Positions 6,874 through 59,068 of a stretch of 64,000 nucleotides of DNA are shown here, in pieces. The number at the start of each line of letters is the position of its first letter. Position 1 is the stretch's first letter. The stretch is from contig JARLHZ010000004.1 of NCBI GenBank assembly GCA_031291995.1, positions 5,272 to 69,271 of the forward strand, in the 5' to 3' direction. The notes below the pieces were generated by a model that saw only the letters and a program-made list of their open reading frames with translations, was not told the origin of the DNA and ran no database searches. Origin of the DNA: Candidatus Doudnabacteria bacterium. Lineage in GTDB: Bacteria > Patescibacteriota > Doudnabacteria > UBA920. The position numbers and the translations under genes are program-made.

Positions 6874-9078
6874 ATGGATTTATCGGCGTTAAATAATCAG
6901 CAAAAGCAGGCGGTCACAGCGGGTCTCGGGCCGGTTTTGGTATTGGCCGGGCCGGGCAGCGGCAAGACCAAAACCTTAACCCACCGGCTGGCGTATTTAA
7001 TTGAAAAAAAACTCGTGCCGCCGGCCAACATTTTAGCCCTGACTTTTACAAATAAGGCGGCTAAGGAGATGCGCGGCCGGGTGGCTGTGCTGTTGGCGAG
7101 ATTTGTTTCCGCGACGGAACAATTGACCATGGGAACTTTTCACGCCGTGTGCGCCAAAATTTTGCGGCACGAAATCGCGGTTTTAGGCTATGGCCATGAT
7201 TTTGTGATTTTTGACAGCCAAGACCAGCAAAAAGTCATTAAGGAAATTTTGGAAGAACTGCGCGTGGACACCAAGCGTCTGCCGGCCTCTATGTTTGGCG
7301 CCCTGATTTCCCGCGCCAAAAATCTTCTGCAGCTGCCGGCGGAACTGGATTTGGGATTGGATTCCCCGCTCCGCGAAAAATTAGCCGAAGTTTACGCGCG
7401 TTACCAGGACAGCCTGTTTAAGCAAAACGCTCTTGATTTTGACGACTTGCTGATGCTCACCGTAAAAATTATGGAAAACTTCCCCAAAATACTCCAAAAA
7501 TATCAAAAAAAGTTCGTTTATGTTTTGGTTGATGAATACCAGGACACCAACGCCGCCCAATACCGCCTGTTACGAATGTTCTCCGAACACCGCAATTTGT
7601 TCGTGGTCGGCGACGACGCGCAGAGCATATATAAATTCCGCGGCAGCGACATTACCAACATCCTGAATTTTGAAAAGGATTTTCCCGAGGCTCAAATTAT
7701 CAAACTCGAACAGAATTACCGGAGCACCAAGAATATTTTAAACGCCGCGCAAAAGGTTATAGAGCTTAATCCCGAACAAAAACCCAAAACTTTGTGGACG
7801 GAAAATCCGGACGGGGAAAAAATTATTTTGGCCTGCGAAGAGGATGAGCAGGCCGAAGGCGGGTTTGTGGCCAGAAATATTATTAAGCTGGCCACCAACC
7901 AGGGAACCGGGGAATTGGAATACGAGACGGACGACAGCCAAAAGGACAATGACGATAAGCCAAGTTTCTCTATTCTCGACAGGTTCATTAAAGCCAAAAA
8001 AATGCAGGCCAAATATTCACCGTCGCTGGGCAGTTTTGGCCGGGGGCTGTTACCGCAGCTGCCGAAAAAGCACGAACCGCTTAGGGAATTTTGCGTACTT
8101 TACCGGACCCACGCGCAGAGCCGTGCCATTGAAGAAGCTCTAATAGAATCAAGTATTCCGTACCAGATTGTCGGCGGCCTGAAATTTTACGAACGCAAGG
8201 AAATTAAGGACATGCTGGCTTATTTGCGCCTGACGCTCAATTTTCGCGACTTGGTATCGTTAAAGCGCGTGGTTAACGAGCCGCCGCGGGGGATTGGGGA
8301 TAAGTCTTATGAGATAATCAGGGATTTTATATTAAATTTTAAACAGGATGAGAAATCCGAAAAACCGGATAAATCAAAGAAGCTCGCTTCTGATTCCCCA
8401 GTTCTCCGCCTTTCAGAATTTAGGAGCGCGTTTGCCGAAGTTACGCTGCAGCGCAAAGCCTGGCATTCGGCGCAGGATTTTTTTGCCGTGCTCGGGGAGC
8501 TTACGGAGTTTAACGAAAAATCCGCTTTGTCCGAGCTGATGAAATTGGTTGTCCGGAAAACGGGATACGAAAAATACTTGCGCGACGGCAGCGAGGCCGG
8601 CGAATCGCGTTTTGAAAACGTGGAAGAACTGTATTCCGTGGCGCAAAAGTTCGGCAACCTGCCGTGGCGGGAAGCGTTGTCGGAATTTTTGCAGGAAGTG
8701 GCGCTTATTAGCGAAATCGACCAAAAAGACGAAAGCAAAGACGCGGTAACTCTTATGACCCTGCATAGCGCGAAGGGTCTGGAGTTCGATAATGTGTTTT
8801 TTGTGGGGCTGGAAGAGGGGATATTGCCTCACAGCCGCAGCCTGCTGGACCCGAGCGAACTGTCCGAAGAAATCCGCCTGGCTTACGTGGGCCTGACCCG
8901 GGCGCGCAAACGCCTGTTTTTGGTCTACACCCACAGCCGCCGCGTGTTCGGCAATTGGCAAATCAGCCAACCGTCGCGCATTCTTAAAGCTTTGCCCAGA
9001 GAAAATATGGAATACCGGGGAACTGCCAAAGAACATTTTAGCGGCAACGATGGGGAACTGGAGTATGAAGTCACGTAG
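6874..9078 (+). CDS. uvrD: UvrD/PcrA/Rep-family ATP-dependent DNA helicase
   Basis: Walker A GPGSGKTKTLTHR, motif II VLVDEYQDTN, and a UvrD C-terminal motif VGLTRARKRLFL. Confidence 0.85.
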   Translation: MDLSALNNQQKQAVTAGLGPVLVLAGPGSGKTKTLTHRLAYLIEKKLVPPANILALTFTNKAAKEMRGRVAVLLARFVSATEQLTMGTFHAVCAKILRHEIAVLGYGHDFVIFDSQDQQKVIKEILEELRVDTKRLPASMFGALISRAKNLLQLPAELDLGLDSPLREKLAEVYARYQDSLFKQNALDFDDLLMLTVKIMENFPKILQKYQKKFVYVLVDEYQDTNAAQYRLLRMFSEHRNLFVVGDDAQSIYKFRGSDITNILNFEKDFPEAQIIKLEQNYRSTKNILNAAQKVIELNPEQKPKTLWTENPDGEKIILACEEDEQAEGGFVARNIIKLATNQGTGELEYETDDSQKDNDDKPSFSILDRFIKAKKMQAKYSPSLGSFGRGLLPQLPKKHEPLREFCVLYRTHAQSRAIEEALIESSIPYQIVGGLKFYERKEIKDMLAYLRLTLNFRDLVSLKRVVNEPPRGIGDKSYEIIRDFILNFKQDEKSEKPDKSKKLASDSPVLRLSEFRSAFAEVTLQRKAWHSAQDFFAVLGELTEFNEKSALSELMKLVVRKTGYEKYLRDGSEAGESRFENVEELYSVAQKFGNLPWREALSEFLQEVALISEIDQKDESKDAVTLMTLHSAKGLEFDNVFFVGLEEGILPHSRSLLDPSELSEEIRLAYVGLTRARKRLFLVYTHSRRVFGNWQISQPSRILKALPRENMEYRGTAKEHFSGNDGELEYEVT

Positions 9079-9082
9079 ATAA

Positions 9083-9190
9083 TGCCAAATTTCAGATTTC
9101 AAATATCAAATCAATGGCGAAGTTTAAAATTTAAAATTTAAAATTAGGATTTGATTTAAAATTTTTAATTTAAAATTTGTAATTGTGTCC
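9083..9190. repeat. word-built hairpin, caaatttcaaat / atttgaaatttg family
   Basis: ccaaatttcagatttcaaatatcaaatc ... gatttaaaatttttaatttaaaatttgtaattg are inverted arms of A/T-rich words. Confidence 0.6.
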
Positions 9191-9192
9191 CA

Positions 9193-10095
9193 ATGAATGT
9201 AGATCAACTAAAAAATCTTCTCAAGCATTACCATCTCAAGCCCAACTTTACCTACGGCCAGAATTTTTTGATTGACGATATTGTGCTGCAGGACATAGTT
9301 GACGCGGCGGACATAAGCGAGGCCGACGCGGTTTTGGAAATCGGCCCGGGCATTGGCAACCTGACCCGCGCTTTGTGCGAGCGCGCGGGTTTTGTTTTGT
9401 CCATAGAAAAAGACCCGAAGTTTTTTCCAATACTGAAGTCCGTAAAAAAAGATTATCCCGAAAACTTCCGCTTTGAAATTGCCGACGCCCTTGAGTTCGA
9501 TTTTCAGGCGGAGCTATCTGCCAGGGGATTTATTAATCCAAACGCCGGAACAAATGTCGTTCCGCGTCCAGATCCGCGTAGCGGATCCGCGTTTAGATCC
9601 GCGGGTTATAAAGTTGTCGCCAACATCCCATACTACATTACCGGAAAAATTTTACAAATGCTGATGACGGCAAAAGTTAAGCCAAGCAGCATCGTCGTGC
9701 TAACGCAAAAAGAAGTCGCGCGCAACCTGGCGGCCAAAGCGGGGGACTTGGGAATTCTGGCCATCTCGGTCCAGCTGTACGGCGAACCTAAACTGGTGCA
9801 GGTCGTCCAGTCCAAAAGTTTTTATCCGGCGCCAAAAGTCGACAGCGCGATAGTCAAAATAGATTTGTACGACAAAGCCAAATATGAGCTCGCCGACGAA
9901 AAAAGATTTTTTAAAATTGTCAAAGCTTGCTTCGCCGGCAAGCGAAAACAAATCCATAACACCCTGGTAAACAATTTGCACCTGGATAAAAATTTCGTGG
10001 CCGATATTTTGCGCCAGCTAAAAATAAAACCTGAGGCAAGACCTCAGGAGTTAACCATTGAACAGTGGATTGACCTAGCCGGAAAGATTCAGTAA
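9193..10095 (+). CDS. rsmA: 16S rRNA (adenine1518/1519-N6)-dimethyltransferase RsmA/KsgA, with an internal ~25-aa insertion
   Basis: YGQNFLIDDIVLQDIV, SAM-binding motif VLEIGPGIGNLTRAL, and VVANIPYYIT. The insertion is encoded by gatccgcg-type repeats at ~9529-9615. Confidence 0.8.
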   Translation: MNVDQLKNLLKHYHLKPNFTYGQNFLIDDIVLQDIVDAADISEADAVLEIGPGIGNLTRALCERAGFVLSIEKDPKFFPILKSVKKDYPENFRFEIADALEFDFQAELSARGFINPNAGTNVVPRPDPRSGSAFRSAGYKVVANIPYYITGKILQMLMTAKVKPSSIVVLTQKEVARNLAAKAGDLGILAISVQLYGEPKLVQVVQSKSFYPAPKVDSAIVKIDLYDKAKYELADEKRFFKIVKACFAGKRKQIHNTLVNNLHLDKNFVADILRQLKIKPEARPQELTIEQWIDLAGKIQ

Positions 10096-10098
10096 TAA

Positions 10099-10200
10099 TT
10101 CGAAATTGCAAATATCAAATTTCAAATCAAGGCCAATATCTTAATTTTTTAATTTGGCATTAAAAATTGATTTGAAATTTGTAATTTGGTATTTGTCATT
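10099..10200. repeat. word-built hairpin, caaatttcaaat family
   Basis: cgaaattgcaaatatcaaatttcaaatcaa ... ttgatttgaaatttgtaatttggtatttg. Confidence 0.6.
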
Positions 10201-10861
10201 TTTTTAGTACCGCTTCATCGCCCGCCGTGATGTTGTTTTTTTTCGCCCACCCGGCATTTACTTCCACCACCCAATTGACCGGCGACGGGGGATAGTAAAC
10301 CGGGAGGCGCGAGTTGCAGCTTTCAACCGATAAGTTACAAATCGCGGGAGCGGGGACATCGGGAGTTACGCCTGTAACTTTTCCGTCCGCAATCCAAATA
10401 AAATCCAAATTAAATTTCATATCCTTCATCCAAAATCCGGTCATTTGCGCCGAGCCAAAATCAAACAGCATGCCCTGGCCTGTGGCCATGGAAATTCTGT
10501 CCGATAAACCTTGTTGCTGCTCCGCCGGCGTGTTCGCAATTTCCACATTCAAATTTTGTGAACCAATTTGCAATCGATGAGAGTAACTATATGGCTGAGC
10601 CGAAACCGGAGCAGAGGATAATATCTGCTGATTGCATCCCGCGGCCAAGACAGCCGTAAAAAAAATTAAAGCCAATAGTTTGAGTAAACGATTATTATTA
10701 AATGTGTCATCCCGACCCGCCGTCGCCAAGGCTTTGGCGGGCAAGCCGACATCATTATGAGCATGGGTCAGGCGAAGCCCTGAGCGGAGCGAAGGGGATC
10801 CCTTATGTGTAGAAATCGCAAATAATTTTATTTTCATCTCTAAATCATACCAAGTCCTCAA
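10196..10861 (-). CDS. DUF192-family lipoprotein. The N-terminal ~55 codons of the ORF probably belong to a repeat element and are not coding
   Basis: Lipobox-like LLALIFFTAVLAAGC and the DUF192 core GMLFDFGSAQMTGFWMKDMKFNLDFIWI. The upstream part of the ORF spans the MITE-like copy at 10694-10815, so the true start is probably near 10700. Confidence 0.55.
   Translation of the reverse strand: MRTWYDLEMKIKLFAISTHKGSPSLRSGLRLTHAHNDVGLPAKALATAGRDDTFNNNRLLKLLALIFFTAVLAAGCNQQILSSAPVSAQPYSYSHRLQIGSQNLNVEIANTPAEQQQGLSDRISMATGQGMLFDFGSAQMTGFWMKDMKFNLDFIWIADGKVTGVTPDVPAPAICNLSVESCNSRLPVYYPPSPVNWVVEVNAGWAKKNNITAGDEAVLKK
10694..10815. mobile_element. MITE-like element copy (TGTCATCCCG family)
   Basis: Starts tgtgtcatcccgaccc and contains gggtcaggcgaagccctgagcggagcgaaggggatccc. 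Related to the copies at 14564, ~15500, 15956 and 47170. Confidence 0.45.
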
Positions 10862-10983
10862 ACCTATTGCAAAATTTATCCGGATGTGCTATAATAAGAA
10901 TGTAAAAGGTAAAAGTTCGCTTAGAAATCAAAACAAAACACAATTTAATAACATCAAATCGGAGGCCAATAATTTAGGCCGAT

Positions 10984-11454
10984 TTGTATTGTGAAACAAA
11001 ATTAAAATCCAATATTATGAGGCATTATCACATGAGCCGAATTCTATATACTTTCATGGTAGCTTTGTTGTTAACTACCGCGGCCGTTTTTGTTTTGTAT
11101 TCGCAGGCGTTACCCGCAAAAGCGCTGCCGGTGTTTGTTCCTTATGGAGGCTTCGTAATTGCCGGCCCCTTGGCTGCCCAGAGTATTATTTGTCCGGAAT
11201 ATTCACTTGTAAATAATGTCGATTTGGAAAACGGTCTCGGGCCGGTTATTGGTATTGCCATCCCTGTCACGCCGCCGGCGCCGACTTATGATTTCAACGA
11301 TATATTTACACCCGGTAATCCTTTAGTGGGTGGCGTTCTGCCGACCCCCTGTGCGGTGGGCCTCGGAGGCGTCCAGGTTTATCCTATATTTTTTGACGCT
11401 CCGGACGGCCCGTTTTATTTGACCGGTACGGGCGGAATTCCGGGAACATATTAA
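10984..11454 (+). CDS. small secreted/membrane hypothetical protein (likely start at 11032, MSRILY...)
   Basis: N-terminal hydrophobic helix LYTFMVALLLTTAAVFVLY followed by a Gly/Pro-rich mature part. No family recognised. Confidence 0.35.
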   Translation: MYCETKLKSNIMRHYHMSRILYTFMVALLLTTAAVFVLYSQALPAKALPVFVPYGGFVIAGPLAAQSIICPEYSLVNNVDLENGLGPVIGIAIPVTPPAPTYDFNDIFTPGNPLVGGVLPTPCAVGLGGVQVYPIFFDAPDGPFYLTGTGGIPGTY

Positions 11455-11464
11455 AAAAACAAAT

Positions 11465-12331
11465 ATGGAAATTTCAAATCAGGAAGCTCAATCTGTTTCT
11501 CCTCAATCAATACAGTGGGGGCATTTTGGCATAATTATGTTTGCCGTAATTTTGCTTTTTGGCGCGGCGTACTTGGAAAAGCCCCAGCTGTTTGATTTTC
11601 ACAAAGCGCAAACCCTTGCCGAGGCCGGCTTGCCGCATTATGTTCCTTATGTTCCCTCGGCGGAAGACTTGCCTCAGCCGGCCGTGCTGGGGGCAAGCAC
11701 CGACCAGGGTCCGCAAATAATAGGGGACGACGGAAAAGTCGCCCCGGTAAACGTTGGACAAGTCTTGGGCGCCAGCACCCAGGGGGTTCAACTTTCTTTA
11801 AGCGATATTAAAGTAAATTCCATTCCCGACTCCGCGGGGTCAGTTAAACAATATTTTATCGATACGCAAGCCATAGAATCAAATGTTATTAGTAATAATG
11901 ATTTTGCAGGAGCTATAAACTCCGGAGACCAAGGGCAAATAAATATTCAGGCGCAAAAAATTTCCGGCTTGTTAGCCGCATTGCAGAAATTACCCGTTCC
12001 CCAGAGCCTTATAAAACTGCAGCAATTAAAAATCGTCCAGTATAATTCCACGATCGCTCTGCTGCAGAATTTTACGAAAGCCGATGAAAACCCCGACCAA
12101 ATTAGTGCCGATCTTCAGCAGTTTTTAAAGAGCCAGCAGGACTTGGATAATGAAAATATCGCGGTGGCGCAAAAATTTCCTCAGGACGACCCACAGTCGG
12201 CGTTGTATCTTAATGCTGACGGCTCCCCGGCTGTTTCGCAATCCACCATTGACAACTTTGGTTCCAGCGCGGTCACGCCAAGCCAAGTTTCCAGCTTAAC
12301 GAATTTAGACAACAGCGATGCGGGCCAATAA
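11465..12331 (+). CDS. hypothetical membrane-anchored protein
   Basis: TM helix HFGIIMFAVILLFGAAYL followed by a Q/S/D-rich hydrophilic domain. No recognisable family. Confidence 0.35.
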   Translation: MEISNQEAQSVSPQSIQWGHFGIIMFAVILLFGAAYLEKPQLFDFHKAQTLAEAGLPHYVPYVPSAEDLPQPAVLGASTDQGPQIIGDDGKVAPVNVGQVLGASTQGVQLSLSDIKVNSIPDSAGSVKQYFIDTQAIESNVISNNDFAGAINSGDQGQINIQAQKISGLLAALQKLPVPQSLIKLQQLKIVQYNSTIALLQNFTKADENPDQISADLQQFLKSQQDLDNENIAVAQKFPQDDPQSALYLNADGSPAVSQSTIDNFGSSAVTPSQVSSLTNLDNSDAGQ

Positions 12332-14276
12332 CGTCAAAAAAATAATTGCAGCGGCTTTAATTTTCAGCCAAATGGTTTTGATGCCGGGCTTGGCTTTTGC
12401 TTTGCCCCTTAGCGGTACCGGTACAGCTGCCGGGGCGGTCAATCCTGTGCCGATTAATGACAGCGGGTCGGTCGTCGGAAATACCGCATTTGATATTGCT
12501 TTAAAAGCAATTTTAACTTTAAATCCCGAATCCCTGGCGGTTTGCGATACTACACTGCAGGGATTCGAAAAAACGGATACTGTAACGCAGGTTGGGTTTT
12601 CTTTTTCTGCGATTATCGGTGGAGGAAATCTTTTGGCCGCGCAGTATGCCAAGGAGATTACCGCATACACCGCATATTTGGCGTGTCTTGAAGGCGATCC
12701 GACCTTGGGTTTTACGCCGGGCGTGCTCCCTGCTTTACAAGCTTTAACATCGCCAAACATTTATACCGCAAGCGTCAAGGAACAATATATTACTAAGGTT
12801 AACGCGAGTATTGAAGCCTATACCGCTAAATTGAACAGCGCCATTGCTAAATACAATGTTGCCAGCCAAAACATCTGGAAAGCCTTTTTAATTACCGTTC
12901 TTCTTCAAACCACGAAAGTCGTGGCTGACCAGTTGGTAAACAAGTTGGTGAATAATTTTAAAATTGCCAATATCAAAGCTTATACCGATTCGGTCGCGAC
13001 TTTAATGTATGACAACCAGTTTATTCGGGACAATTTTCCCGACAACCAGGGCCAGCTTATGGCCAGGGCTATTTTAACTAATCCGGCGTTCCGATTCCAG
13101 GTGCCGCCCGGGATTTACGTTCAAGCGGACACGGCTTTGGGTTATGCGACCTTGAATCCGGACGATCCCTATTTTTACAGCGACCTGGCCAAAGCCGGCT
13201 TTGCGGCTACGAATCCCTATTATTTACATACGACTTACGTAGGCGGTGTTGATCAATCTCATGGTTCGGCGCTGGCTTCGGCCAAGACTTTTATTTCCCA
13301 GGGCACCGGCTATAAAGCGCCGGTTAATTGCGCGGGCAGTCTGGCCCAGCAGCAGCAAATAGACACCGCGACCAAAGCCGCATCAGATCAGTTGGCTAAT
13401 AGAGCGGCATTGCTTCAAAGTTTGCAAAATGCCAGAAGTACCATGACTAATTTTACCACTGCGCAAATTCAGCAGATGGATAGCGACATAGCCAAAGCCC
13501 AGGCCGATTATAATACTGCGCTGGCCGCGTGGAATAATTTGCCATTTACCGTGACTGGTAATAATAGTGTTAGCAATTCAGCCGTGGGCGGCGGTAATAA
13601 CACCGAAGGCACCGCGGCTATTGTTATGTGCGAGGCTATTAATTCCCCGGCCGTGTTAGTCAATCAGGGTATAGATGCCATGTTTAAATCTTTAAACCTT
13701 GGCCAGTATACCCCCAACAACTTGCCCGGTTTCTTAAAGGCAATGGCTGGTATCGCAACACAAATCGGTTCCAGTATGGTTATGGGCGGCATTACCGGTC
13801 ACGCCGTAAATATAAATGAAAATATGGCTGCGGGCGCGGCGGTTTCCGTCACCCAAGCGGCGACCATTCAAACACTAAACAACAACACCGAAAGTAATAT
13901 GGCAAAGGGGATAGATCTTGAAGCTTACCCCAACTCGGGTGTAACCAACGGGTATACTTTAACCTGGACGGTTATGACGACTCAAATCGGGACCGCCAGT
14001 TATGCGGCGATTACCGGGCCGGGGGTAGTGGGTACTACGACAAGGCTGCCGCTCAGCGGGAGCATGCAAGTAGTTTCGCCGACGGGCGGCAATTATACAC
14101 TGACTGTATTTGATTCTTCCGGTAAACCACTGATTACCGCCGTAGCCACTGCCACACCGCAGCAGACCGCGTACAATAATAATGCAAACTCGCCAACCGT
14201 GGCCGGCGCGTTTACCAACCAGCCGGTAATTCTGCCCAGAGGCCTGGTGCCCGTATTTGCTCCGAGAGGGGAATAG
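12318..14276 (+). CDS. large secreted hypothetical protein (signal peptide)
   Basis: Signal peptide IIAAALIFSQMVLMPGLAFALP. 652 aa, A/T/N-rich. No family recognised. Confidence 0.4.
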   Translation: MRANNVKKIIAAALIFSQMVLMPGLAFALPLSGTGTAAGAVNPVPINDSGSVVGNTAFDIALKAILTLNPESLAVCDTTLQGFEKTDTVTQVGFSFSAIIGGGNLLAAQYAKEITAYTAYLACLEGDPTLGFTPGVLPALQALTSPNIYTASVKEQYITKVNASIEAYTAKLNSAIAKYNVASQNIWKAFLITVLLQTTKVVADQLVNKLVNNFKIANIKAYTDSVATLMYDNQFIRDNFPDNQGQLMARAILTNPAFRFQVPPGIYVQADTALGYATLNPDDPYFYSDLAKAGFAATNPYYLHTTYVGGVDQSHGSALASAKTFISQGTGYKAPVNCAGSLAQQQQIDTATKAASDQLANRAALLQSLQNARSTMTNFTTAQIQQMDSDIAKAQADYNTALAAWNNLPFTVTGNNSVSNSAVGGGNNTEGTAAIVMCEAINSPAVLVNQGIDAMFKSLNLGQYTPNNLPGFLKAMAGIATQIGSSMVMGGITGHAVNINENMAAGAAVSVTQAATIQTLNNNTESNMAKGIDLEAYPNSGVTNGYTLTWTVMTTQIGTASYAAITGPGVVGTTTRLPLSGSMQVVSPTGGNYTLTVFDSSGKPLITAVATATPQQTAYNNNANSPTVAGAFTNQPVILPRGLVPVFAPRGE

Positions 14277-14323
14277 TATTCGCTTTTCAATCGACCGTTT
14301 AGAAAAACAAAAATTAGGAGATC

Positions 14324-14352
14324 AAAAAACCATCATCAAAGATGGTTTTTTG
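14324..14352 (+). terminator. rho-independent terminator
   Basis: aaaaaccatc-atcaaa-gatggttttttg is a stem-loop followed by a T-run, downstream of 12318-14276. Confidence 0.6.
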
Positions 14353-14481
14353 ATAGTCACGGGTCTGCCGCCGAATATTTATGCTTAACGCGTTAGGCCT
14401 GACCCGGATAGTTATTTGCACTATAATTTGCATCCATCGGTTGCAAATAATTTCAATAAGCGTAAACTGTAGATAGCCATT

Positions 14482-14519
14482 TGGTAGACAAAACGTGCGG
14501 CCGCACGTTTTGTCTACCA
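14482..14519. repeat. 38-bp perfect palindrome, copy 1
   Basis: tggtagacaaaacgtgcggccgcacgttttgtctacca (centre GCGGCCGC). Confidence 0.9.
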
Positions 14520-14563
14520 ATATCAAATAAAAATTATTACAAGTAGTCTTAAAAATAAAGTTT

Positions 14564-14656
14564 CGTCATCCCCGGCTTGACCGGGGATCCAGAATTGTTC
14601 TTACTTGCTTGACTTGGATTCCTCCGTCCGCCTTAGGCGGGAGGACGGGAATGACG
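14564..14656. mobile_element. MITE-like element copy (TGTCATCCCG family)
   Basis: cgtcatccccggcttgaccggggatcc ... ggcgggaggacgggaatgacg. The termini are inverted (gtcatccccg / cgggaatgac). Confidence 0.45.
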
Positions 14657-14717
14657 TAAAGTGGTCAAAGGTTATTTTTTAAGATAGCTTCTAAGATAAA
14701 AATTAAATTTTACTTTT

Positions 14718-15251
14718 ATGCCGAAAAAAGATTCGACCGCGGTAAATGAAGTTTTATTTTGGCTGTACGAGACGGGGAAGCTTTTGTCCGTAATTTTCGC
14801 GTCCAAGCACGAATGGAAAAGGCGGATGTGGAATCATACCTGGGGGAACTACAACAATTATAAATCCACGGTTTACCATATGCGGGAACAGGGGCTGGTG
14901 GAAATCGTGTCCAAAGATGGCTTAAGGTTTTTAAAACTTACGTCCAAAGGGCAAATGGAAGCATTGCTGGCCAAAGCAAAAGTCGTTAAGCGAGCAGTTT
15001 GGGATAAAAAATGGCGGGTGCTGATTTTTGACATCCCGGAAGACGCCAAATTGCAGAGGAACCAATTCAGGCGTCTGTTAAAAAGAAATGAATTTAAAAA
15101 ATTGCAGGCCAGCGTTTATGTAAACCCCTACCCGTTTAACCGCGAGGCAATTGAATATTTAAAAGAATCAGGTTTAATAAAGTACATTCGGATTTTAAAA
15201 GTTGAAGAAATGGACAGTGATGCCGATTTGCGTAAGATGTTTAATATATAG
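14718..15251 (+). CDS. wHTH + Cas2/VapD-fold (PaaX-like) small protein
   Basis: N-terminal winged-helix-like region (VYHMREQGLVEIVSKDGLRFLKLTSKGQ). The C-terminal region matches the Cas2 beta1-alpha1-beta2 pattern (KKWRVLIFDIPED...QFRRLLKRNEFKKLQASVYVN). No cas1 or array is present. Confidence 0.4.
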   Translation: MPKKDSTAVNEVLFWLYETGKLLSVIFASKHEWKRRMWNHTWGNYNNYKSTVYHMREQGLVEIVSKDGLRFLKLTSKGQMEALLAKAKVVKRAVWDKKWRVLIFDIPEDAKLQRNQFRRLLKRNEFKKLQASVYVNPYPFNREAIEYLKESGLIKYIRILKVEEMDSDADLRKMFNI

Positions 15252-15325
15252 GACTTACTTCTTTCAAAGCGGAACACATTTTTTAATGAGCTTCTGATAC
15301 TAGTCAAATAATCTAAAAATAAAAT

Positions 15326-15363
15326 TGGTAGACAAAACGCGCGGCCGCACGTTTTGTCTACCA
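15326..15363. repeat. 38-bp palindrome, copy 2 (one mismatch)
   Basis: tggtagacaaaacgcgcggccgcacgttttgtctacca. Confidence 0.9.
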
Positions 15364-15732
15364 AAGACAAGAGTTGTATTTTTATATTTATAGGCGATAT
15401 TGGCGAATGGCGCGGGTGGTGTGGCGTGGCAAATCAAATCGGATATTCTGAAGGCAATTTCGGTTTTAATCGACACTATTCCCCGGAGCCCCACTCCAGG
15501 GTTAACAATTATGTCATCCCGGAATTTTTCAGGGCTGTGAAAAATATCCGGGATCCAGTCAGGGCGGCATTCTGGATCCCGGCTCTCTACCTTCGTCAAG
15601 GCTACGGCAGACAAGTCGGATGTATTCGGCCGAGCTGATACACTAGCTATTTGGACTTGTTACCACGCTGCTCTGCCGCGGGGAGGGCTCATTGAAAATC
15701 TGATGCCAATCTTAATAATCTAGAAAGAAAAT

Positions 15733-15770
15733 TGGTAGACAAAACGTGCGGCCGCACGTTTTGTCTACCA
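15733..15770. repeat. 38-bp perfect palindrome, copy 3
   Basis: tggtagacaaaacgtgcggccgcacgttttgtctacca. Confidence 0.9.
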
Positions 15771-15955
15771 AAGACAGGTTTTGTTGAAATTATATTTTAT
15801 AGACGATATCGGTGCGTGGCGCGGGTGGTGCGGGGTGGAAAATCGTCCCGGATATTCTAAAGGTAATGTCGGTTTTATCTAATTTTTACCAATACACAAA
15901 ATTGTTCCGTTTCCCGTAGGTTTGCCGGACTATATTTTGACTTTAATTCACAAGT

Positions 15956-16115
15956 TTGCCGAGGTTACTTCCCACTGGCCCTGTGTCATTGCGAGGAAAC
16001 AAGGGCTTTGACTTATTTCCGAAGCAATCTTAGAGAGACAATAAGATTGCTTCGTCGGCTGCACTCCTCGCAATGACACAACAATTCAATACCCAGTGGG
16101 CAGTAACTTGCCGAG
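15956..16115. mobile_element. MITE-like element with ~45-bp imperfect terminal inverted repeats
   Basis: Left arm ttgccgaggttacttcccactggccctgtgtcattgcgagga. Right arm tcctcgcaatgacacaacaattcaatacccagtgggcagtaacttgccgag. Internal palindrome gaagcaatcttagagagacaataagattgcttc. Confidence 0.55.
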
Positions 16116-16119
16116 TATT

Positions 16120-16147
16120 TTGTGATTTTTGGGGAATGTGGTATAAT
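16120..16147 (+). promoter_or_regulatory. sigma70-like promoter candidate for the VirB6-like gene
   Basis: -35 ttgtga at 16120-16125, a 16-nt spacer, and an extended -10 tgg-tataat at 16139-16147. It sits 24 bp upstream of the ATG at 16171. Confidence 0.4.
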
Positions 16148-16170
16148 TTTAGTGAAAGTCTTATCCACAA

Positions 16171-24782: not shown

Positions 24783-25181
24783 ATGGCAGATCAAAACAAA
24801 ATAATCCATAAGGATCTCAGTTATAAAATTGTCGGTGTTGCTTTTAGATCTTTTAAGGCAACAGGATATGGAATGCCTGAAAAGTACTGTCAAGGTGTGT
24901 TCGCTGCCGAACTTGAGAAAGCTGGGTTGCACTTTAATCGGGAAGTTTATGTTACTTTAAATTATGAAGGTAAAGTTATCACAAAGTATTTTTTAGATTT
25001 TATTGTTGAAGATTCGGTGGTTGTGGAATTAAAAGTTCGGCCAAAAATCGGATATGCCCATATTGAACAAGTAATGGCATACCTTAAAGCAACGAATAAG
25101 AAATTAGCGATTTTAATCTATTTTACCCAAGAAGGTGTGAAATATCGGAGAATCGTTAATTCTTACAACAAACTACAATGA
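24783..25181 (+). CDS. GxxExxY-family protein (PD-(D/E)XK-like)
   Basis: DLSYKIVGVAFRSFKATGYGMPEKYCQGVFAAELEKAGL...FLDFIVEDSVVVELKV...IEQVMAYLKATNKKLAILIYF. Confidence 0.7.
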   Translation: MADQNKIIHKDLSYKIVGVAFRSFKATGYGMPEKYCQGVFAAELEKAGLHFNREVYVTLNYEGKVITKYFLDFIVEDSVVVELKVRPKIGYAHIEQVMAYLKATNKKLAILIYFTQEGVKYRRIVNSYNKLQ

Positions 25182-25186
25182 GCAGG

Positions 25187-25222
25187 TTCGTATATTAATT
25201 TTAAATTTGTATATTCGCGATT
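25187..25222. repeat. right arm of the inverted repeat bracketing the GxxExxY gene
   Basis: ttcgtatattaattttaaatttgtatattcgcgatt. Confidence 0.7.
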
Positions 25223-25225
25223 ACT

Positions 25226-25909
25226 ATGAAGCTTGAAATGCAAAACAAAAAAAAGCCTATTGGGAAGCCGACGCAGAATTTTTTGCGTATTTCGGAAATA
25301 AAAAACGACACCGTGGTTATGGACGACGGAACTTTGCGGGTCATAATTATGGTGTCCAGCACCAATTTTGACTTAAAGAGCCAGGACGAACAGAATTCCA
25401 TTATTTTCGGTTTCCAGCGGTTTTTAAACAGCCTGGAATTTCCCGTCCAGATTCTCATGCAAAGCCGAAAAATGGAGATTGGCGGCTATTTGGAAAAATT
25501 AAAGAAATTGGCGGACAAGCAGACCAACGAGCTCCTCCGCGTCCAGACCAACGAATACGTGGAGTTTATTTCCCGGCTCATTGAGAACGCCAGCATTATG
25601 AATAAGAATTTTTATATTGTCGTCCCTCTGGGGGAAAGCATTTTTCCGGCCGCCGCGGGGTTCTTTAGCCGCGTATTCGGCAGGGGGCGGGAACGGGAAG
25701 TTACCGAGCGGATAGAAAATTTTGAAAAGGCCAAAGAAAAATTGGACAACCGCGCCACCTCGCTGGCCTCCAACCTTTCGGGTATTGGCATTCGGGCAGA
25801 ACGAATGAAGACGGAAGAAATTATCCAGCTGTATTATAATTCCTATAATTTTGAATCGGGCCCGCTGATAAACCCGGGAGAGCTTAAAGAAATCAAACTA
25901 TCACAATAA
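25226..25909 (+). CDS. protein resembling a VirB4/TrbE N-terminal domain (no ATPase motifs)
   Basis: FLRISEIKNDTVVMDDGTLRVIIMVSSTNFDLKSQDEQNSIIFGFQRFLNSLEFPVQILMQSR resembles the CagE/TrbE/VirB4 N-region. Confidence 0.3.
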   Translation: MKLEMQNKKKPIGKPTQNFLRISEIKNDTVVMDDGTLRVIIMVSSTNFDLKSQDEQNSIIFGFQRFLNSLEFPVQILMQSRKMEIGGYLEKLKKLADKQTNELLRVQTNEYVEFISRLIENASIMNKNFYIVVPLGESIFPAAAGFFSRVFGRGREREVTERIENFEKAKEKLDNRATSLASNLSGIGIRAERMKTEEIIQLYYNSYNFESGPLINPGELKEIKLSQ

Positions 25910-25923
25910 ATCAATTGATTAAT

Positions 25924-26030
25924 GTCAAATTATAAATATCAAATTTCAAATCAATGTCAAAGTTTGAAATTTAAAAAATTTGTAATTAGGTTTTGATTTG
26001 AAATTTGTAATTTGATATTTGAAATTTAAC
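25924..26030. repeat. word-built hairpin, caaatttcaaat family
   Basis: tgtcaaattataaatatcaaatttcaaatcaatgtcaaag ... ttttgatttgaaatttgtaatttgatatttgaaattt. Confidence 0.6.
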
Positions 26031-26032
26031 CT

Positions 26033-27880
26033 ATGTCTATTTTTAGCAAACTCACCGAACAGGATTTAGAACAAAAAAAGGCTCAGCTCAAGGAAAAGGA
26101 GAAGGAACATTCCCTGAGTTCGTCATTGGGCGATTTGGAAAAAACCTATAAGGAAGGCTTGACGACGTTAAAGGATATTATCGCGCCGTCGGCTTTAAAA
26201 TTTGAAGGGTCGCATTTTGAATTAAACGGCAAATACGGCCGCAGTTTTTTCGTGCTGGCCTATCCGCGCTTTTTGTCCAGCAACTGGCTGTCGTTTATAA
26301 TCCAGGCGGACGGAGCCCTGGATTTGTCGATGTTTATTTATCCCATAGACTCGGCGGACATTCTAAAAAAATTAAAGAGCAAGGTCGGGGAACTTGGTTC
26401 GCAAATGTCCATTAACCAGGAAAAGGGCATGGTCCGCGACCCGATGCTGGAGACGGCTTACAAAGACGTGGAAGGCCTGCGCGACAACTTAATGCAGGGT
26501 ACGGAAAAGTATTTTCGGTTCGCCCTGTACTTTACAATATACGCCAACGATTTAAAGGAACTGGACAAATCATCCTCGACCCTGGAAAGCAGCCTGGGGG
26601 CCAAGCTGATTGTTACCAAACGGGCGCTGCTTCAGACGCAGAACGGACTGAATTCCACGCTTCCCATGGGTTTGGACGAACTGGACGTGGCCAATAACAT
26701 GAATACCAGCCCGCTGTCCTCGTGTTTTCCTTTTGTGTCATCGGATTTGACTTCCAACGACGGGATTTTATACGGCATTAACCGACACAATAACAGTTTG
26801 ATATTATTTGACCGTTTTGCCATGGAAAATGCCAACTCCGTTGTGTTTGCCAAGTCCGGCGCGGGGAAGTCTTACGCGGTCAAATTGGAAGTTTTACGAA
26901 GTCTCATGGTTGGCACAGACGTTATTATCGTGGATCCGGAAAATGAGTACCAGCATTTGGCCGCGGCTGTTGGCGGAACTTATTTGAGCGTCAGTTTAAA
27001 TTCCCCGTCCCGCATTAACCCGTTTGATTTGCCGGTTGCCGTGGAAGGTGAAAGCAACGCGGACGTCCTGCGCAGTTCGGTTATTAACTTGCTGGGTTTG
27101 TTCAGTTTGATGCTGGGCAAGCTAAATCCCACCGAAGAAGCCATTATGGACAAGGCCATTTGGCAAACTTACGCCAAAAAAGATATTACATCCGAATTGG
27201 AAGATTTTAAAAACATTGAGTGCCCGACCATGAACGATTTGATGGAAATTTTAAACAGCATGGTCGGAGCCGAGAGCCTGGCTCAGCGGCTGACCAAATT
27301 TACCGAAGGCACTTTTGGCGGATTGCTAAACCAGGCGACCAACGTGGTGCTTAACAACCAGCTGGTGGTATTTTCCATCCGCGATTTGGAAGAGGAACTG
27401 AGGCCAATAGCCATGTATATTATTTTAAATTACATTTGGAATGTCGTCCGCAGCGAATTAAAGCGCCGCATTCTGGCCGTGGACGAAGCCTGGATACTCA
27501 TGCAGCATGAAGACAGCGCCAGGTTCCTGTTCGGTATTGCCAAACGCGCCCGTAAATATTACCTTGGCCTGACCACCATTACCCAGGACGTGGCCGACTT
27601 TTTGGCCAGCCCCTACGGCAAACCGATTGTGACCAACTCGTCCATCCAAATGTTGTTAAAACAATCCCCGGCGGCTATTAATGTAATCGCTGAAACATTC
27701 TTTTTGACCGAGGGAGAAAAATATTTATTGCTGGAAAGCGAAGTCGGCGAAGGGATATTTTTTGCCGGGCTGAAGCACGCGGCCATCAAAATTTACGCGT
27801 CCTACGTGGAAGACCAAATAATTACCACCGACCCCAAACAGCTTTTGGAAATTCAGGACAGCCAGGAAAAGTTGAACTAA
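26033..27880 (+). CDS. VirB4/TrbE-family type IV secretion ATPase
   Basis: Walker A FAKSGAGKSYAV, Walker B ILAVDEAWILM, and a VirB4-like N-region (GKYGRSFFVLAYPRFLSSNWLSFII...DLSMFIYPID). Confidence 0.65.
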   Translation: MSIFSKLTEQDLEQKKAQLKEKEKEHSLSSSLGDLEKTYKEGLTTLKDIIAPSALKFEGSHFELNGKYGRSFFVLAYPRFLSSNWLSFIIQADGALDLSMFIYPIDSADILKKLKSKVGELGSQMSINQEKGMVRDPMLETAYKDVEGLRDNLMQGTEKYFRFALYFTIYANDLKELDKSSSTLESSLGAKLIVTKRALLQTQNGLNSTLPMGLDELDVANNMNTSPLSSCFPFVSSDLTSNDGILYGINRHNNSLILFDRFAMENANSVVFAKSGAGKSYAVKLEVLRSLMVGTDVIIVDPENEYQHLAAAVGGTYLSVSLNSPSRINPFDLPVAVEGESNADVLRSSVINLLGLFSLMLGKLNPTEEAIMDKAIWQTYAKKDITSELEDFKNIECPTMNDLMEILNSMVGAESLAQRLTKFTEGTFGGLLNQATNVVLNNQLVVFSIRDLEEELRPIAMYIILNYIWNVVRSELKRRILAVDEAWILMQHEDSARFLFGIAKRARKYYLGLTTITQDVADFLASPYGKPIVTNSSIQMLLKQSPAAINVIAETFFLTEGEKYLLLESEVGEGIFFAGLKHAAIKIYASYVEDQIITTDPKQLLEIQDSQEKLN

Positions 27881-28040
27881 TTTCAAATTACAAATAACAA
27901 ATTTCAAATAAATTCCTAATTTTAAGCGCCAAATAATATCCAAAAGGCCGCGTGTTAAATTTCAAAAGTCCGGGTTTGGCCTTTGAAATTTGGATTTTGG
28001 CGTTGGTTTGATATTTGGAATTTGTAATTTGGAATTTTTT
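27881..28040. repeat. word-built hairpin(s), caaatttcaaat family
   Basis: tttcaaattacaaataacaaatttcaaat ... atttgaaatttggattttggcgttggtttgatatttggaatttgtaatttggaat. Confidence 0.6.
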
Positions 28041-28045
28041 ATTTT

Positions 28046-33445: not shown

Positions 33446-33454
33446 GAATAAACT

Positions 33455-33640
33455 GACAAGATTGACATAATTGAACAAAATTGACAAGATTATCATAGTA
33501 TAACCTTGTCAATTTTTTTTGGCTCGGCATTCTTTACACCAGGAACTACTTAGCAAAAATCGTTTATGATATTCCTGTCAATCCTGTCAATCCTGTCAAT
33601 CTTGTCAATCTTGTCAATCATTTTACTCTTGTCAATCATC
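33455..33640. repeat. word-built inverted arrays (ttgacaag x3 upstream, cctgtcaat/cttgtcaat x6 downstream) around a terminator hairpin
   Basis: ctgacaagattgacataattgaacaaaattgacaagatt ... hairpin ttgacaagattatcatagtataaccttgtcaa followed by an 8-T run ... cctgtcaatcctgtcaatcctgtcaatcttgtcaatcttgtcaatc. Confidence 0.6.
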
Positions 33641-33642
33641 CC

Positions 33643-34977
33643 ATGCCCAAATCATCCGTAGTCTTCATTTGCTCCAACTGCCAGTATAGTTCGCCGCGTT
33701 GGCAGGGCAAGTGTCCCAATTGCGGGCAGTGGAATACCCTGGTGGAAAGCCGGGTTAAAATATCAAATTCCAAACATCAAATTTCCAAAGCCGCCGAGCC
33801 GGTGGATTTGGCAATGGTGGATATTAGCCAGCGAGCCAAAATTGTCAGCGGCATATCCGAGTTTGACGACGTGCTGGGCGGGGGCTTTGTTCCGGGCAGT
33901 TTGGTTCTGCTCGGCGGCGACCCCGGTATTGGCAAATCCACATTGGCTTTGCAGATTTCCATGCGGCTGGGAGAAAAAGTTTTGTATGTGTCCGGCGAAG
34001 AATCGGTCCATCAGATAAAATTGCGCTCGGGCCGGGTCAGTGAAAGCCAGCAGCTAAATGTTTTAGCCGAAACGGATTTGGACGCGGTTTTGGCGTCGAT
34101 AGAAGCACGGTCTCCTGAATTGGTGGTTATTGATTCCATCCAAACAATGTACAGCCAGGAGGCCAGCGGCGTGGCCGGCGGCGTGGCGCAGGTTACATCG
34201 GCAGTGCAAAAAATTATGCGCTTGGCCAAGCAAAATCACATTTCTTTTATTTTAATCGGCCATGTTACCAAAGAAGGTTATTTGGCCGGACCTAAAACTT
34301 TGGAGCATATGGTGGACACAGTGTTGTACCTGGAAGGGGAGCGGTTCGCCAGTTTTCGCATTTTGCGATGCGTGAAAAACCGCTTCGGGACAACCAATGA
34401 GGTGGGAGTGTTTGAGATGCAGGGACAGGGTCTGGCCGAAGTTAAAAACCCATCGCAGTTGTTTTTGGGCGAGGAACAAATGCAGGCCAGCGGGAATATT
34501 ATAACATCGGTAATGGAGGGCAGCCGGGCTCTTTTGCTGGAAATTCAGGCTTTAACTTCCGCAACCAACTTTGGTTACCCAAAGCGCACCACGGCCGGTT
34601 TTGATGTTAACCGCCTGCAGCTGCTTACCGCCATTCTTTCCAAGCGGGCGGGGCTAAATTTAGCCAACCAGGACATTTATATTAATGTTGTCGGCGGCAT
34701 AAAAATAGACGAGCCGGCCGCCGATTTAGCCGTGGCGCTGGCCATTGTCAGCAGTTTAAAAGAAGCGGTGGTAGCCGATACTATTGTCGTAGGGGAATTG
34801 GGGCTTTCCGGCGAAGTCCGCTACGTGCCAAACTTGGAGAAACGGATTAAAGAAGCGGAAAAATTGGGATTCAAAAAAATTATCTGCCCCCGCATGCGCC
34901 AAGGTTATGATATTAAAAACGCAAAAATAAAAATCCTGCCGGTAAAAACCTTGCAGGAAGCGATAAACTTAATATAA
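33643..34977 (+). CDS. radA: DNA repair protein RadA/Sms
   Basis: Zinc finger CSNCQYSSPRWQGKCPNCGQW, Walker A GGDPGIGKST, KNRFG motif CVKNRFG, and a Lon-like C-terminal domain. Confidence 0.85.
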   Translation: MPKSSVVFICSNCQYSSPRWQGKCPNCGQWNTLVESRVKISNSKHQISKAAEPVDLAMVDISQRAKIVSGISEFDDVLGGGFVPGSLVLLGGDPGIGKSTLALQISMRLGEKVLYVSGEESVHQIKLRSGRVSESQQLNVLAETDLDAVLASIEARSPELVVIDSIQTMYSQEASGVAGGVAQVTSAVQKIMRLAKQNHISFILIGHVTKEGYLAGPKTLEHMVDTVLYLEGERFASFRILRCVKNRFGTTNEVGVFEMQGQGLAEVKNPSQLFLGEEQMQASGNIITSVMEGSRALLLEIQALTSATNFGYPKRTTAGFDVNRLQLLTAILSKRAGLNLANQDIYINVVGGIKIDEPAADLAVALAIVSSLKEAVVADTIVVGELGLSGEVRYVPNLEKRIKEAEKLGFKKIICPRMRQGYDIKNAKIKILPVKTLQEAINLI

Positions 34978-44805: not shown

Positions 44806-45029
44806 ATATAAGGATTTGTCGGAGCTTTGGTTGATTTACTTGATAATCTCATCAATTTTACCAAATTTTGCGAAAAGCCTCAAGGTATGGCATACTAATA
44901 AAAAGCTTATGCTACTAAAATAACGCTGATAGGCACGCTGATTATGCCGCTGAAACTTCAGGTCGCTTTGATCCTGGCAGTAAGAATCAGTAGTCATTCA
45001 GCGGAAAAAGTACTTATTCGAAACAAAAC

Positions 45030-47169: not shown

Positions 47170-47285
47170 TGTGTCATCCCGAGCCGGAACATTACAGGGA
47201 TCAAAGGCGAGGGATCCCTTAACGCGAGATAATCGATTAATTTTAGGGATTCCTCAGTCGGCCGCACTCCTTCGGAATGACACAG
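47170..47285. mobile_element. MITE-like element copy (TGTCATCCCG family) with inverted termini
   Basis: tgtgtcatcccgagccgg ... ccttcggaatgacacag. Internal gggatcaaaggcgagggatccc. Confidence 0.55.
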
Positions 47286-48471: not shown

Positions 48472-48516
48472 TCAATTTTACTTAATTTTACTTAATTTTA
48501 GTAATTTTACTTAATG
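48472..48516. repeat. short tandem direct repeats (ttttacttaat x3-4)
   Basis: tcaattttacttaattttacttaattttagtaattttacttaatg immediately upstream of the ROK gene. Confidence 0.6.
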
Positions 48517-52978: not shown

Positions 52979-53113
52979 GTTTGTACTTTTATTTTAAAAG
53001 TAAAATTAAAGACATTTGACTGGATCCCGGATATTTTTTGCGGCTTATGATGTTCATATTCGCAAAAAAATCCGAGATGACGCTTGAAGTTCGGCGATAA
53101 TTCAGCGTACCTA

Positions 53114-54994: not shown

Positions 54995-55179
54995 AAAACC
55001 GCTGATCAAACGCGGATAGCTACGCTGATACCACGCTGACAGCCAATTCCGCCCTCGTCCGATAGACAGTCGGCAGGGCATTAATATTATGCCCTAATTA
55101 TATCGTAAATGCGGATTTTTGCCAAATAGTTTTATTTTGAATATAATGGATAAAGTTTGATAAATAATCGAAATAAAAA

Positions 55180-55758: not shown

Positions 55759-55879
55759 CACGCGGAATGGGCGCAGATATGTACGCTGATTAGGCCGCTG
55801 ATATTTCGGGCATCTTCCGGGAACTGTAATATACATCGGATTTTCCGCGATCGCGCTCTCGTAGTATTTATAAAAGCGA

Positions 55880-58533: not shown

Positions 58534-58983
58534 ATGGATATTGATAAATTACATCTGGAACCGGCAAAAAAAGTTAAGACCAGCGACCATCGGGGCATTG
58601 AGAACGGCTGGCTGATGGAACTGTATAAAGACAAAGACACGGGACAAAAAACCGAAGCTTATTTAACCGCGGCCTTACCGGGCGCGTTTAAGGGCTATCA
58701 TCTTCACCGCGTCCGCGCGGCCAGGTATGTGGCTGTAAAAGGGCGAATGAAAATTACCTGCTACGAAAACCAAGGCGGCAAATGGAAGCCGAGCGAGTAT
58801 ATTTTGTCGGCGGATAACCCGCAAAGATTGTTTATTCCCAAAAATGTGGCCACCGGTCTGGAAAATATCGGCAGTGAAGAAGCCTGGCTCATTAATTATC
58901 CGGATCCAGCCTATGACCCAAGCTTGAAAGACGAACAGGTGGAATACACAAGGGAAGAGCTGGAACGGGGCATTGTTAAATGA
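58534..58983 (+). CDS. cupin-type sugar epimerase/isomerase (RfbC/FdtA-like)
   Basis: HRGIENGWLMELYKD...AFKGYHLH...FIPKNVATGLENIGSEEAWLINYPD. Immediately upstream of rfbB-rfbD-rfbA. Confidence 0.5.
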   Translation: MDIDKLHLEPAKKVKTSDHRGIENGWLMELYKDKDTGQKTEAYLTAALPGAFKGYHLHRVRAARYVAVKGRMKITCYENQGGKWKPSEYILSADNPQRLFIPKNVATGLENIGSEEAWLINYPDPAYDPSLKDEQVEYTREELERGIVK

Positions 58984-59068
58984 ATTAGGAATGATGAATT
59001 AGGAATGATGAATTAGGAATTATGAGTTTGTCCCATTCCTAATTCCTAATTCCTAATTCCTAATTCCA
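58984..59068. repeat. word-built hairpin (taggaa/ttccta family)
   Basis: aattaggaatgatgaattaggaatgatgaattaggaattatg ... cattcctaattcctaattcctaattcctaattcc. Confidence 0.7.

Follow-up and report, generated by a model that had tools for sequence, protein, structure and literature searches.

Hairpins between protein-coding genes of a Candidatus Doudnabacteria genome are probably the terminal inverted repeats of small insertion cassettes resembling rRNA intervening sequences

The window analyzed here is the whole 64,000-nucleotide stretch of a Candidatus Doudnabacteria contig (JARLHZ010000004.1, positions 5,272 to 69,271; GenBank assembly GCA_031291995.1), and its features are given in its own coordinates, on the forward strand unless stated otherwise. 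It encodes UvrD (6874-9078), RsmA/KsgA (9193-10095) and, in a type IV secretion system (T4SS) cluster, PrgI (24201-24653) and a VirB4-like ATPase (26033-27880). A first reading of the sequence (hereafter, the original prediction) had described A/T-rich hairpins built from a common set of short words in the spacers flanking uvrD, rsmA, and the T4SS genes, and this observation was confirmed, as were the neighboring genes. The word CAAATTTCAAAT matched 37 times on both strands with at most one mismatch, against 2.12 ± 1.47 matches in dinucleotide shuffles of the window, none of which reached 37. Almost all matches fell in clusters within the spacers named beforehand (9086-9179, 10109-10188, 23714-23739, 24144-24169, 25940-26028, and 27877-28031), and additional ones lay within two open reading frames (ORFs), at 21049-21100 and 22386-22442.

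Tandem Repeats Finder resolved the words into tandem arrays of a 7-nt unit; in every spacer, the left side reads CAAATNN and the right side its complement. Both arms of the five CAAATNN copies stand in one register and align to AATTNCAAATNNCAAATTNCAAATTTCAAATCAA, with four units and the terminal sequence CAAATCAA, which makes a terminal inverted repeat of ca. 35 bp. Because this single register is shared by both arms, the five are homologous copies of one terminal inverted repeat and not independent assemblies, and the earlier statement that each spacer is arranged differently was only partly right. The arms have a G+C content of 17 to 28%. Four of the copies lack an ORF. The one at 10094-10203, between the convergent rsmA (forward strand) and a DUF192 gene (reverse strand), pairs arms of 37 nt (10094-10130 / 10167-10203, 78% complementary) and is followed by T7; the copy at 25913-26041, between a TrsD/VirB4-N-like gene (25226-25909) and virB4, pairs arms of 34 nt (25921-25954 / 25993-26026, 82%); and the copy 3' of virB4 (27879-28045) pairs arms of 41 nt (27879-27919 / 27996-28036, 78%), followed by T6-A-T4 (28035-28045) and the next ATG at 28046. 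The predicted RNA folds of these three were equaled by none of 200 shuffles (10096-10200, −23.3 kcal/mol, z −3.6; 25910-26032, −27.6 kcal/mol, z −3.9; 27881-28030, −40.8 kcal/mol, z −3.9). The fourth ORF-less copy, between the uvrD stop and the rsmA start (9083-9190), folded no better than shuffles (9079-9192, z −0.9, 38 of 200 as good), so that its stem is unsupported; it looks like a decayed CAAATNN copy, with both arms in the family register. Searching the window against Rfam, we found no family that matches any hairpin, the sole matches being three tRNAs, and no rRNA.

The original prediction had overlooked that the pair at 23711/24139 encloses a gene, that the design is used genome-wide with other words, and that it ties in with the intervening sequences (IVSs) of rRNA. 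The arms of this fifth CAAATNN copy (23706-23749 / 24134-24177) are 44 nt long, 84% complementary, and separated by 384 nt. The left arm consists of four CAAATNN units, the final one of which provides the ATG of the cargo gene (23749-24123), encoding a 124-aa four-helix-bundle protein of the S23p or 23S rRNA IVS family (PF05635, E = 2e-12; TIGR02436, E = 1e-18); an identical protein is entered at NCBI as "four helix bundle protein" of Candidatus Doudnabacteria. An extended −10 promoter of prgI (TGCTATAAT, 24183-24191) lies 9 nt 5' of the prgI ATG, outside the cassette, and is kept in relatives with an empty spacer, for which reason we abandoned the possibility that −35 boxes come from the right arms. 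There is a second cassette at 24650-25227, in which 30-bp inverted repeats (24650-24679 / 25198-25227, 93% complementary) surround a gene (24783-25181) for a GxxExxY PD-(D/E)XK nuclease (PF13366, E = 5e-27; TIGR04256, E = 1e-27).

For comparison, the VirB4-like ATPase was used to retrieve syntenic loci, 80 in all, which come from genomes of Candidatus Doudnabacteria and of other members of the candidate phyla radiation (CPR). Genomes with a VirB4 at least 79% identical (37 in total) were treated as the close clade, the more distant loci served as contrast, and genes in the loci were called as longest ORFs. Window and loci amount to 1.41 Mb, 7% of it non-coding. By far the commonest tandem period was 7, with 154 arrays, 103 of them in the non-coding 7%, and the density of period-7 arrays per kilobase of non-coding DNA was 1.55 in the close genomes versus 0.24 in the distant ones. 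Hairpins were counted with an inverted-repeat aligner that scores G:T and A:C alike, together with a shuffle control; this replaced an RNAfold-based census, which was too permissive for A/T-rich spacers. Of the 228 co-directional spacers in the close clade, 55 had inverted repeats with a score of at least 36, compared with none of 228 shuffled ones and 7 of 131 spacers of distant relatives. The low hairpin frequency in minus-strand or convergent spacers is not to be over-read, since the sampled loci center on a single gene cluster with most of its genes on the same strand. Four or five evenly spaced short cores, uniform within an element, resemble an array of protein sites, and could be taken as such for a DNA- or RNA-binding protein of the host (operator, nucleoid-associated protein, or RNA chaperone) with their inversion being incidental. 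We regard this as extremely improbable: a genome has dozens of different cores, as does a given junction when genomes are compared, more than any single host factor could recognize; the arrays have no candidate regulator linked to them; and nearly all are laid out as inverted pairs (a strict test pairs 64 of 191 spacer arrays, and alignment pairs far more).

All 32 ORFs enclosed by hairpins in the window and the related loci belong to just two families, PF05635 (20 ORFs) and PF13366 (12 ORFs), and the class of arm unit tracks the cargo clade. Among the IVS proteins (IVPs), clade 1 has arms of AATTTC[A/T/C]AAT heptamers, and the other clades have TAGCATA / AATTCTT or ATCCTTA, while GxxExxY cargos have arms with C[G/A/T]GAT cores at a spacing of 8 to 11 nt, the right arm lying within the 3' end of the ORF. 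Cargo and arms therefore diverge together and are inherited as a unit. Campbellbacteria, Moranbacteria, Gracilibacteria, and Berkelbacteria also have proteins of IVP clade 1 (63 to 69% identity), at unrelated loci and flanked by heptamer arms of four units, and such arms were seen with 37 of 49 metagenomic homologues, the ATG often coming from the last unit as in the window cassette. A scan of viral contigs with the IVP protein, for carriage by phages, found nothing. Two adjacent spacers of locus L044 hold a GxxExxY-bearing element and an ORF-less one whose left arms are 100% identical over 42 nt and whose right arms are 96% identical over 51 nt; judged by these arms, the pair appears to be the relation of autonomous element and derivative expected of a MITE (a miniature transposable element with inverted repeats). 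The D..E.K catalytic positions are kept in 12 homologues of the GxxExxY cargo, and this conserved active site, together with the repeated units of the arms, suggests that the cargo protein may recognize the arms, a hypothesis made attractive by the uniformity of the 4- or 5-unit arms and their covariation with cargo clade.

We then have the orthologous sites themselves, for which five gene junctions around virB4 were compared across relatives. Three of them exist, among 37 related Doudnabacteria genomes, in three states: empty (1 to 45 nt), with an ORF-less hairpin (ca. 70 to 200 nt), or with a hairpin that contains an ORF of 119 to 140 aa (410 to 570 nt). At the junction between g227 and virB4, for example, 12 relatives were empty, 11 had the short form, and 13 the long one, and three of the five junctions were empty in a quarter to a third of the close relatives. 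At the junction between g507 and prgI, empty and filled alleles alike keep an extended −10 promoter, TGnTATAAT, 8 to 12 nt ahead of the PrgI ATG, and the cassette stands between the upstream stop and this promoter. Junction states and words were scattered over the VirB4 tree. Three genomes with VirB4 proteins 98 to 99% identical had the same junction empty (L010), filled by a GxxExxY cassette (L011), and filled by an IVP cassette (L052), and another pair (L025 and L069, 98.7% identical) had different words at two junctions. This indicates fast gain, loss, or replacement at the junctions, via transposition or via recombination among alleles. Slow vertical "concerted evolution" or drift of a fixed host hairpin was ruled out by the differences in both occupancy and cargo between genomes whose VirB4 proteins are 99% identical.

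In our judgment, the hairpins are probably the inverted-repeat ends of small, palindromic insertion cassettes that share architecture and cargo with IVSs, are inserted between protein-coding genes, and have MITE-like ORF-less derivatives. Each arm is made of 4 or 5 tandem units of ca. 7 nt (8 to 11 nt in one class), and a full-length copy of ca. 410 to 570 bp carries in its loop a gene of ca. 125 aa, which encodes a four-helix bundle of the S23p/IVP family or a PD-(D/E)XK nuclease of the GxxExxY type. The ORF-less hairpins of 70 to 200 bp belong to the same families and would be to these full copies what MITEs are to transposons. The original prediction had offered intrinsic terminators, RNase III sites, or a proliferating mini-repeat, and its interpretation stands in part: the mini-repeat is the best supported of the three, given homologous terminal inverted repeats, one of them with a cargo gene, and orthologous sites that are empty, filled, or differently filled. 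Homology makes the RNase III sites plausible, since the elements agree with the 23S rRNA IVS of Coxiella in cargo family, length of stem, size, and heptamers.

The geometry of the insertions is tight. The median arm is 40 nt long; the median distance is 1 nt from the stop codon to the onset of the arms and 8.5 nt from their end to the following start, and the A/T-rich stems span 30 to 45 bp with 83% Watson-Crick pairing. Among 37 independent cassettes outside the Doudnabacteria set (from other CPR phyla and metagenomes), the cargo had the orientation of the upstream gene in 35, with a median of ca. 50 nt from the upstream stop to the cargo ATG. This distance is taken up by the left arm alone and leaves no room for a promoter, which argues for expression by read-through transcription, in which case the long stem must form in RNA. 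A cassette fills the spacer from the upstream stop almost to the next start or promoter, with its cargo in the direction of the upstream gene, and would be transcribed by read-through from that gene. The arms would then fold into a double-stranded RNA stem of 30 to 45 bp that is cut by RNase III, as in the 23S rRNA IVS; the cut would separate the cistrons and free a cargo mRNA with a very short leader, which would make the insertion tolerable. Stems of this length and pairing should in principle be adequate RNase III substrates, and we give roughly even chances to co-transcription followed by RNase III cleavage that splits the operon transcript and releases the cargo mRNA.

As an alternative, the hairpins could primarily be intrinsic terminators or attenuators of the host, with selection keeping a hairpin and a U-tract at gene 3' ends while the sequence drifts. 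They do stand directly after stop codons and are rare in divergent spacers (1 of 17), and the rsmA and virB4 copies are followed by T7 (at 10203) and T6AT4 (at 28036), respectively. Furthermore, 27 of 33 relatives carry a hairpin at the junction between virB4 and the next gene, its words being entirely different, and a T-run of at least four follows in 18 of the 27; the junction between g395 and radA has one in 19 of 27, with a T-run in 11. However, a T-run of at least four follows only 18 of 64 clean hairpins (an A-run precedes the stem in 7 of 64) and is frequent at no junctions other than these two; it is absent at 9190 and 26030, and the hairpins at 9079, 25910, 2077, 58982, 60878, and 61659 have none. 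With T-runs in a minority, a universal terminator reading was rejected. The long A/T-rich stems, with the next gene ca. 8 nt on and no promoter room, are also unlike terminators, the ordinary G+C-rich type of which is present elsewhere in the window. The same arms surround genes of a selfish type, the excess of G:U pairs is weak (see below), and three of the five junctions are empty in so many close relatives that no hairpin can be needed there. All this makes terminators improbable as the primary role, and of the original suggestion only the T-run subset stands; for the rest, stem composition, the short distance to the next gene, and the many hairpin-free close relatives speak against it. The T-run copies 3' of virB4 and 5' of radA may also terminate or attenuate transcription, which we hold less probable than the RNase III step. 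A scan for consensus promoters and terminators was uninformative on A/T-rich stems (29 terminator-like sites versus 27.8 expected).

Several points weigh against reading the hairpins as mobile cassettes cut by RNase III. Neither cargo family is a known transposase, and no target-site duplication was visible when filled and empty orthologous junctions were compared. Homologous recombination that shuffles alleles, instead of transposition, could account for the turnover seen between near-identical genomes, and all the comparison genomes are metagenome assemblies. The junctions between virB4 and the next gene and between g395 and radA are almost always occupied by an ORF-less T-run hairpin, never by one with cargo, which looks like a host function; these may be copies co-opted as terminators or attenuators. 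The cleavage by RNase III is argued from analogy, and sense-strand G:U pairs exceeded A:C pairs only slightly (134 versus 102, p = 0.04), with a per-hairpin sign test that was not significant. The arms accordingly look mainly like inverted repeats at the DNA level and not like RNA structures under long selection. Strong selection at the RNA level was discarded as an explanation, and neither this weak excess nor a noisier RNAfold comparison of sense and antisense strands (68:44) was relied upon.

Hairpins of the same design but with other words are found elsewhere in the window. TACGAAN units make up a hairpin between ileS and recO (2077-2159; inverted repeat of 34 nt, 85% complementary; −40.5 kcal/mol, z −7.6) and a second one 3' of rmlA (61659-61733; 33 nt, 88%; −37.9 kcal/mol, z −8.6), with words common to both copies. 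Likewise, a TTAGGAA / ATTCCTA hairpin at 58982-59067 (33 nt, 88%; z −6.7) is accompanied by a TTAGGAA / TTCCTAA hairpin at 60878-60934 (27 nt, 89%; z −6.2). A related element with 9-nt units (TTGACAAnn / TCCTGTCAA) lies 5' of radA (33446-33642) and contains an inner hairpin followed by T8; its 9-mer occurs also in the orthologous spacers of L001, L070, and L077. Arrays of CGCTGAT / TCAGCG, which may be another arm family of the GxxExxY-type class, were seen in spacers and one coding region (44950-45000, 53090-53130, 55010-55045, and 55770-55800; also L022, 1390-1440). Within ileS (13-2073), a segment of ca. 30 aa (residues 170-199, SEIRNRESTDPNSKFLIQNSN...; window 520-620) is absent from solved isoleucyl-tRNA synthetase (IleRS) structures, and in the DNA encoding it, units of the TAGGAAT / ATTCCTA type make up an imperfect hairpin (fold z −2.3). 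The segment thus has the look of a hairpin element copied in frame into the gene.

Heptamers also appear as solo arrays inside genes. Two poorly conserved proteins of the T4SS cluster (ORFs 22173-23696 and 19964-21520) have low-complexity parts made of tandem AGCGGAC, AGCAAAC, AGACAGC (up to 11 copies), and CAAATNN heptamers, which translate to 7-aa periodic peptides. Two solo 4-unit CAAATNN arrays are located in the second ORF (21036-21121), and others in the first (22386-22442), beside coding heptamer arrays at 22337-22373, 22669-22726, and 22895-22977. The linker that follows the zinc ribbon of RadA (33758-33789) is coded by a solo 4-unit heptamer array, as it is in L002 (17518), L015 (16195), L025 (16096), L044 (8296), and L065 (8282), with a unit that varies by genome (CAAAT-type in most, AACAGGC in L044). 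Such solo period-7 arrays in coding linkers, of which the close clade has 44 (those of radA, g507, and g518 among them), and the variation of unit number among copies and among Coxiella strains (PMC4990558), would be expected if the hairpins arose in place by replication slippage of heptamers and template switching, without being mobile, and small genes later invaded the existing loops. Against this, copies at separate sites share register, unit order, and inner boundary, and the L044 arms are identical over 42 nt at two sites. Furthermore, arms go with the cargo clade across phyla and unrelated loci, and occupancy differs where flanking proteins are 99% identical. We therefore hold an origin in place to be highly improbable and retain insertion cassettes as the explanation of the paired arms.

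Some further features of the window were noted. Genes 3' of hairpins (for example, those starting at 9193, 26033, 28046, 59072, and 60945) have no Shine-Dalgarno-like sequence, and prgI has its extended −10 box a mere 9 nt ahead of the ATG, which suggests that mRNAs of this lineage are leaderless or have a very short leader. A separate G+C-rich perfect palindrome of 40 nt, TTGGTAGACAAAACG(Y)GCGGCCGCACGTTTTGTCTACCAA, has three copies (14481-14520, 15325-15364, and 15732-15771); its half-site gave 6 matches versus 0 expected, and two of the three palindromes are followed by T-runs on the minus strand. Another palindromic family, with the ends GTCATTSCGAGG ... CCTCGSAATGAC enclosing ca. 70 to 100 nt, is found at 15985-16077 and 47173-47281 and recurs downstream of virB4 in L017, L023, and L073. 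The region 22009-22172 contains a direct repeat of ca. 40 nt with a small hairpin, GTGGTATATAAACCAC, in each copy, and a perfect promoter-like TTGACA-16-TATAAT site with TG is located on the minus strand (22146-22119). Finally, four tandem 10-mers (AATTTTACTT) at 48474-48515 immediately precede a gene starting at 48522.

To our knowledge, the S23p/IVP and GxxExxY families, although large and widespread, have had no known function for ca. 30 years, and rRNA IVSs have been called selfish without a known way of moving. The present results place an IVS-type element also between ordinary protein genes, where it is turning over fast. The role of the IVS proteins becomes directly testable with dozens of natural variants whose arm units covary with cargo clade, and with their ORF-less derivatives; empty and filled alleles of one junction in near-identical genomes and the strict rule of cargo co-orientation are also useful. 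For the annotation of CPR genomes, these hairpins take up a sizeable share of scarce non-coding DNA and could pass for terminators, small RNAs, or assembly artifacts. A bolder proposal, which we find doubtful as yet, is that the arm units form a recognition array for the element's own cargo of ca. 125 aa (a pentameric S23p/Avd-like bundle or the GxxExxY nuclease). The whole would then be a previously unrecognized mobile element that spreads to gene junctions, rRNA helices, and tolerant protein loops, and would explain both IVSs and heptamer families such as the short tandemly repeated repetitive (STRR) sequences.

We found no description in the literature of such cassettes in mRNA spacers, of their ORF-less derivatives, or of the GxxExxY counterpart, although related context may have come to the notice of the TIGRFAM curators. 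Several known systems resemble the cassettes in part. Repetitive extragenic palindromic (REP) sequences and bacterial interspersed mosaic elements (BIMEs) are G+C-rich imperfect palindromes of 20 to 40 bp with a GTAG/CGTC head, linked to REP-associated tyrosine transposases (RAYTs); unlike them, the A/T-rich Doudnabacteria arms are built from tandem heptamers and lack this head. With Rho-independent terminators they share the hairpin right after a stop codon and, in a subset, a T-run, but differ by their long A/T-rich stems, the usual lack of a U-tract, their dispensability at orthologous sites, and arms in common with gene-bearing cassettes. Like the cyanobacterial STRR heptamers, reportedly described by Mazel et al. 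(1990), they are tandem heptanucleotide arrays, mainly intergenic, with several word families per genome. However, both the phylum (Candidatus Doudnabacteria versus heterocystous cyanobacteria) and the words differ, only the heptamer period is common, and we know of no STRRs described as paired inverted arms around S23p genes. Rickettsia palindromic elements reportedly occur in frame within protein-coding genes (Ogata et al. 2000), and the IleRS insertion of ca. 30 aa would be a likeness in this respect, but those elements are unrelated in sequence and lineage and are not known to have a cargo-bearing form or a heptamer substructure.

The similarity to the Correia elements of Neisseria and other MITEs extends to short elements with terminal inverted repeats in intergenic positions, many copies, presence/absence polymorphism among strains, and hairpins in operon transcripts (predicted ones in Doudnabacteria); those of the Correia elements are reportedly processed by RNase III (De Gregorio et al. 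2003). Multiple copies with common terminal inverted repeats were found (five for CAAATNN, two for TACGAAN, and two for TAGGAAT), as well as presence/absence polymorphism at three orthologous junctions and longer elements with the same ends as ORF-less copies (23706-24177 and in L044), whose cargo is an S23p or PD-(D/E)XK nuclease gene and not a demonstrated transposase. The differences from MITEs are that no target-site duplication was seen, that the parent element is without a recognized transposase, and that the arms are tandem 7-nt units instead of unique terminal sequence.

The 23S rRNA IVSs of Coxiella, Leptospira, Salmonella, and others are like the cassettes in their size of ca. 430 nt, a terminal-repeat stem of ca. 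28 to 44 bp, the PF05635 ORF in the loop, and tandem heptamers. The Coxiella burnetii IVS is a selfish element of 428 to 444 nt in which inverted repeats form a 28-bp stem and the loop contains an S23p ORF; tandem GACAGAT heptamers, two or three depending on the strain, stand between the stem and the ORF start, and RNase III excises this IVS in vitro (PMC4990558). ORFs of the 23S_rRNA_IVP type are found also in insertions of CPR 16S and 23S rRNA genes (PMC11270868). Unlike rRNA IVSs, which reside in helix 25 or 45 of the 23S rRNA, the Doudnabacteria cassettes stand between protein genes, in many copies per genome, with ORF-less derivatives and with a second cargo type, GxxExxY, in equivalent hairpins. 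Both are regarded as selfish and horizontally spread (PMC4990558).

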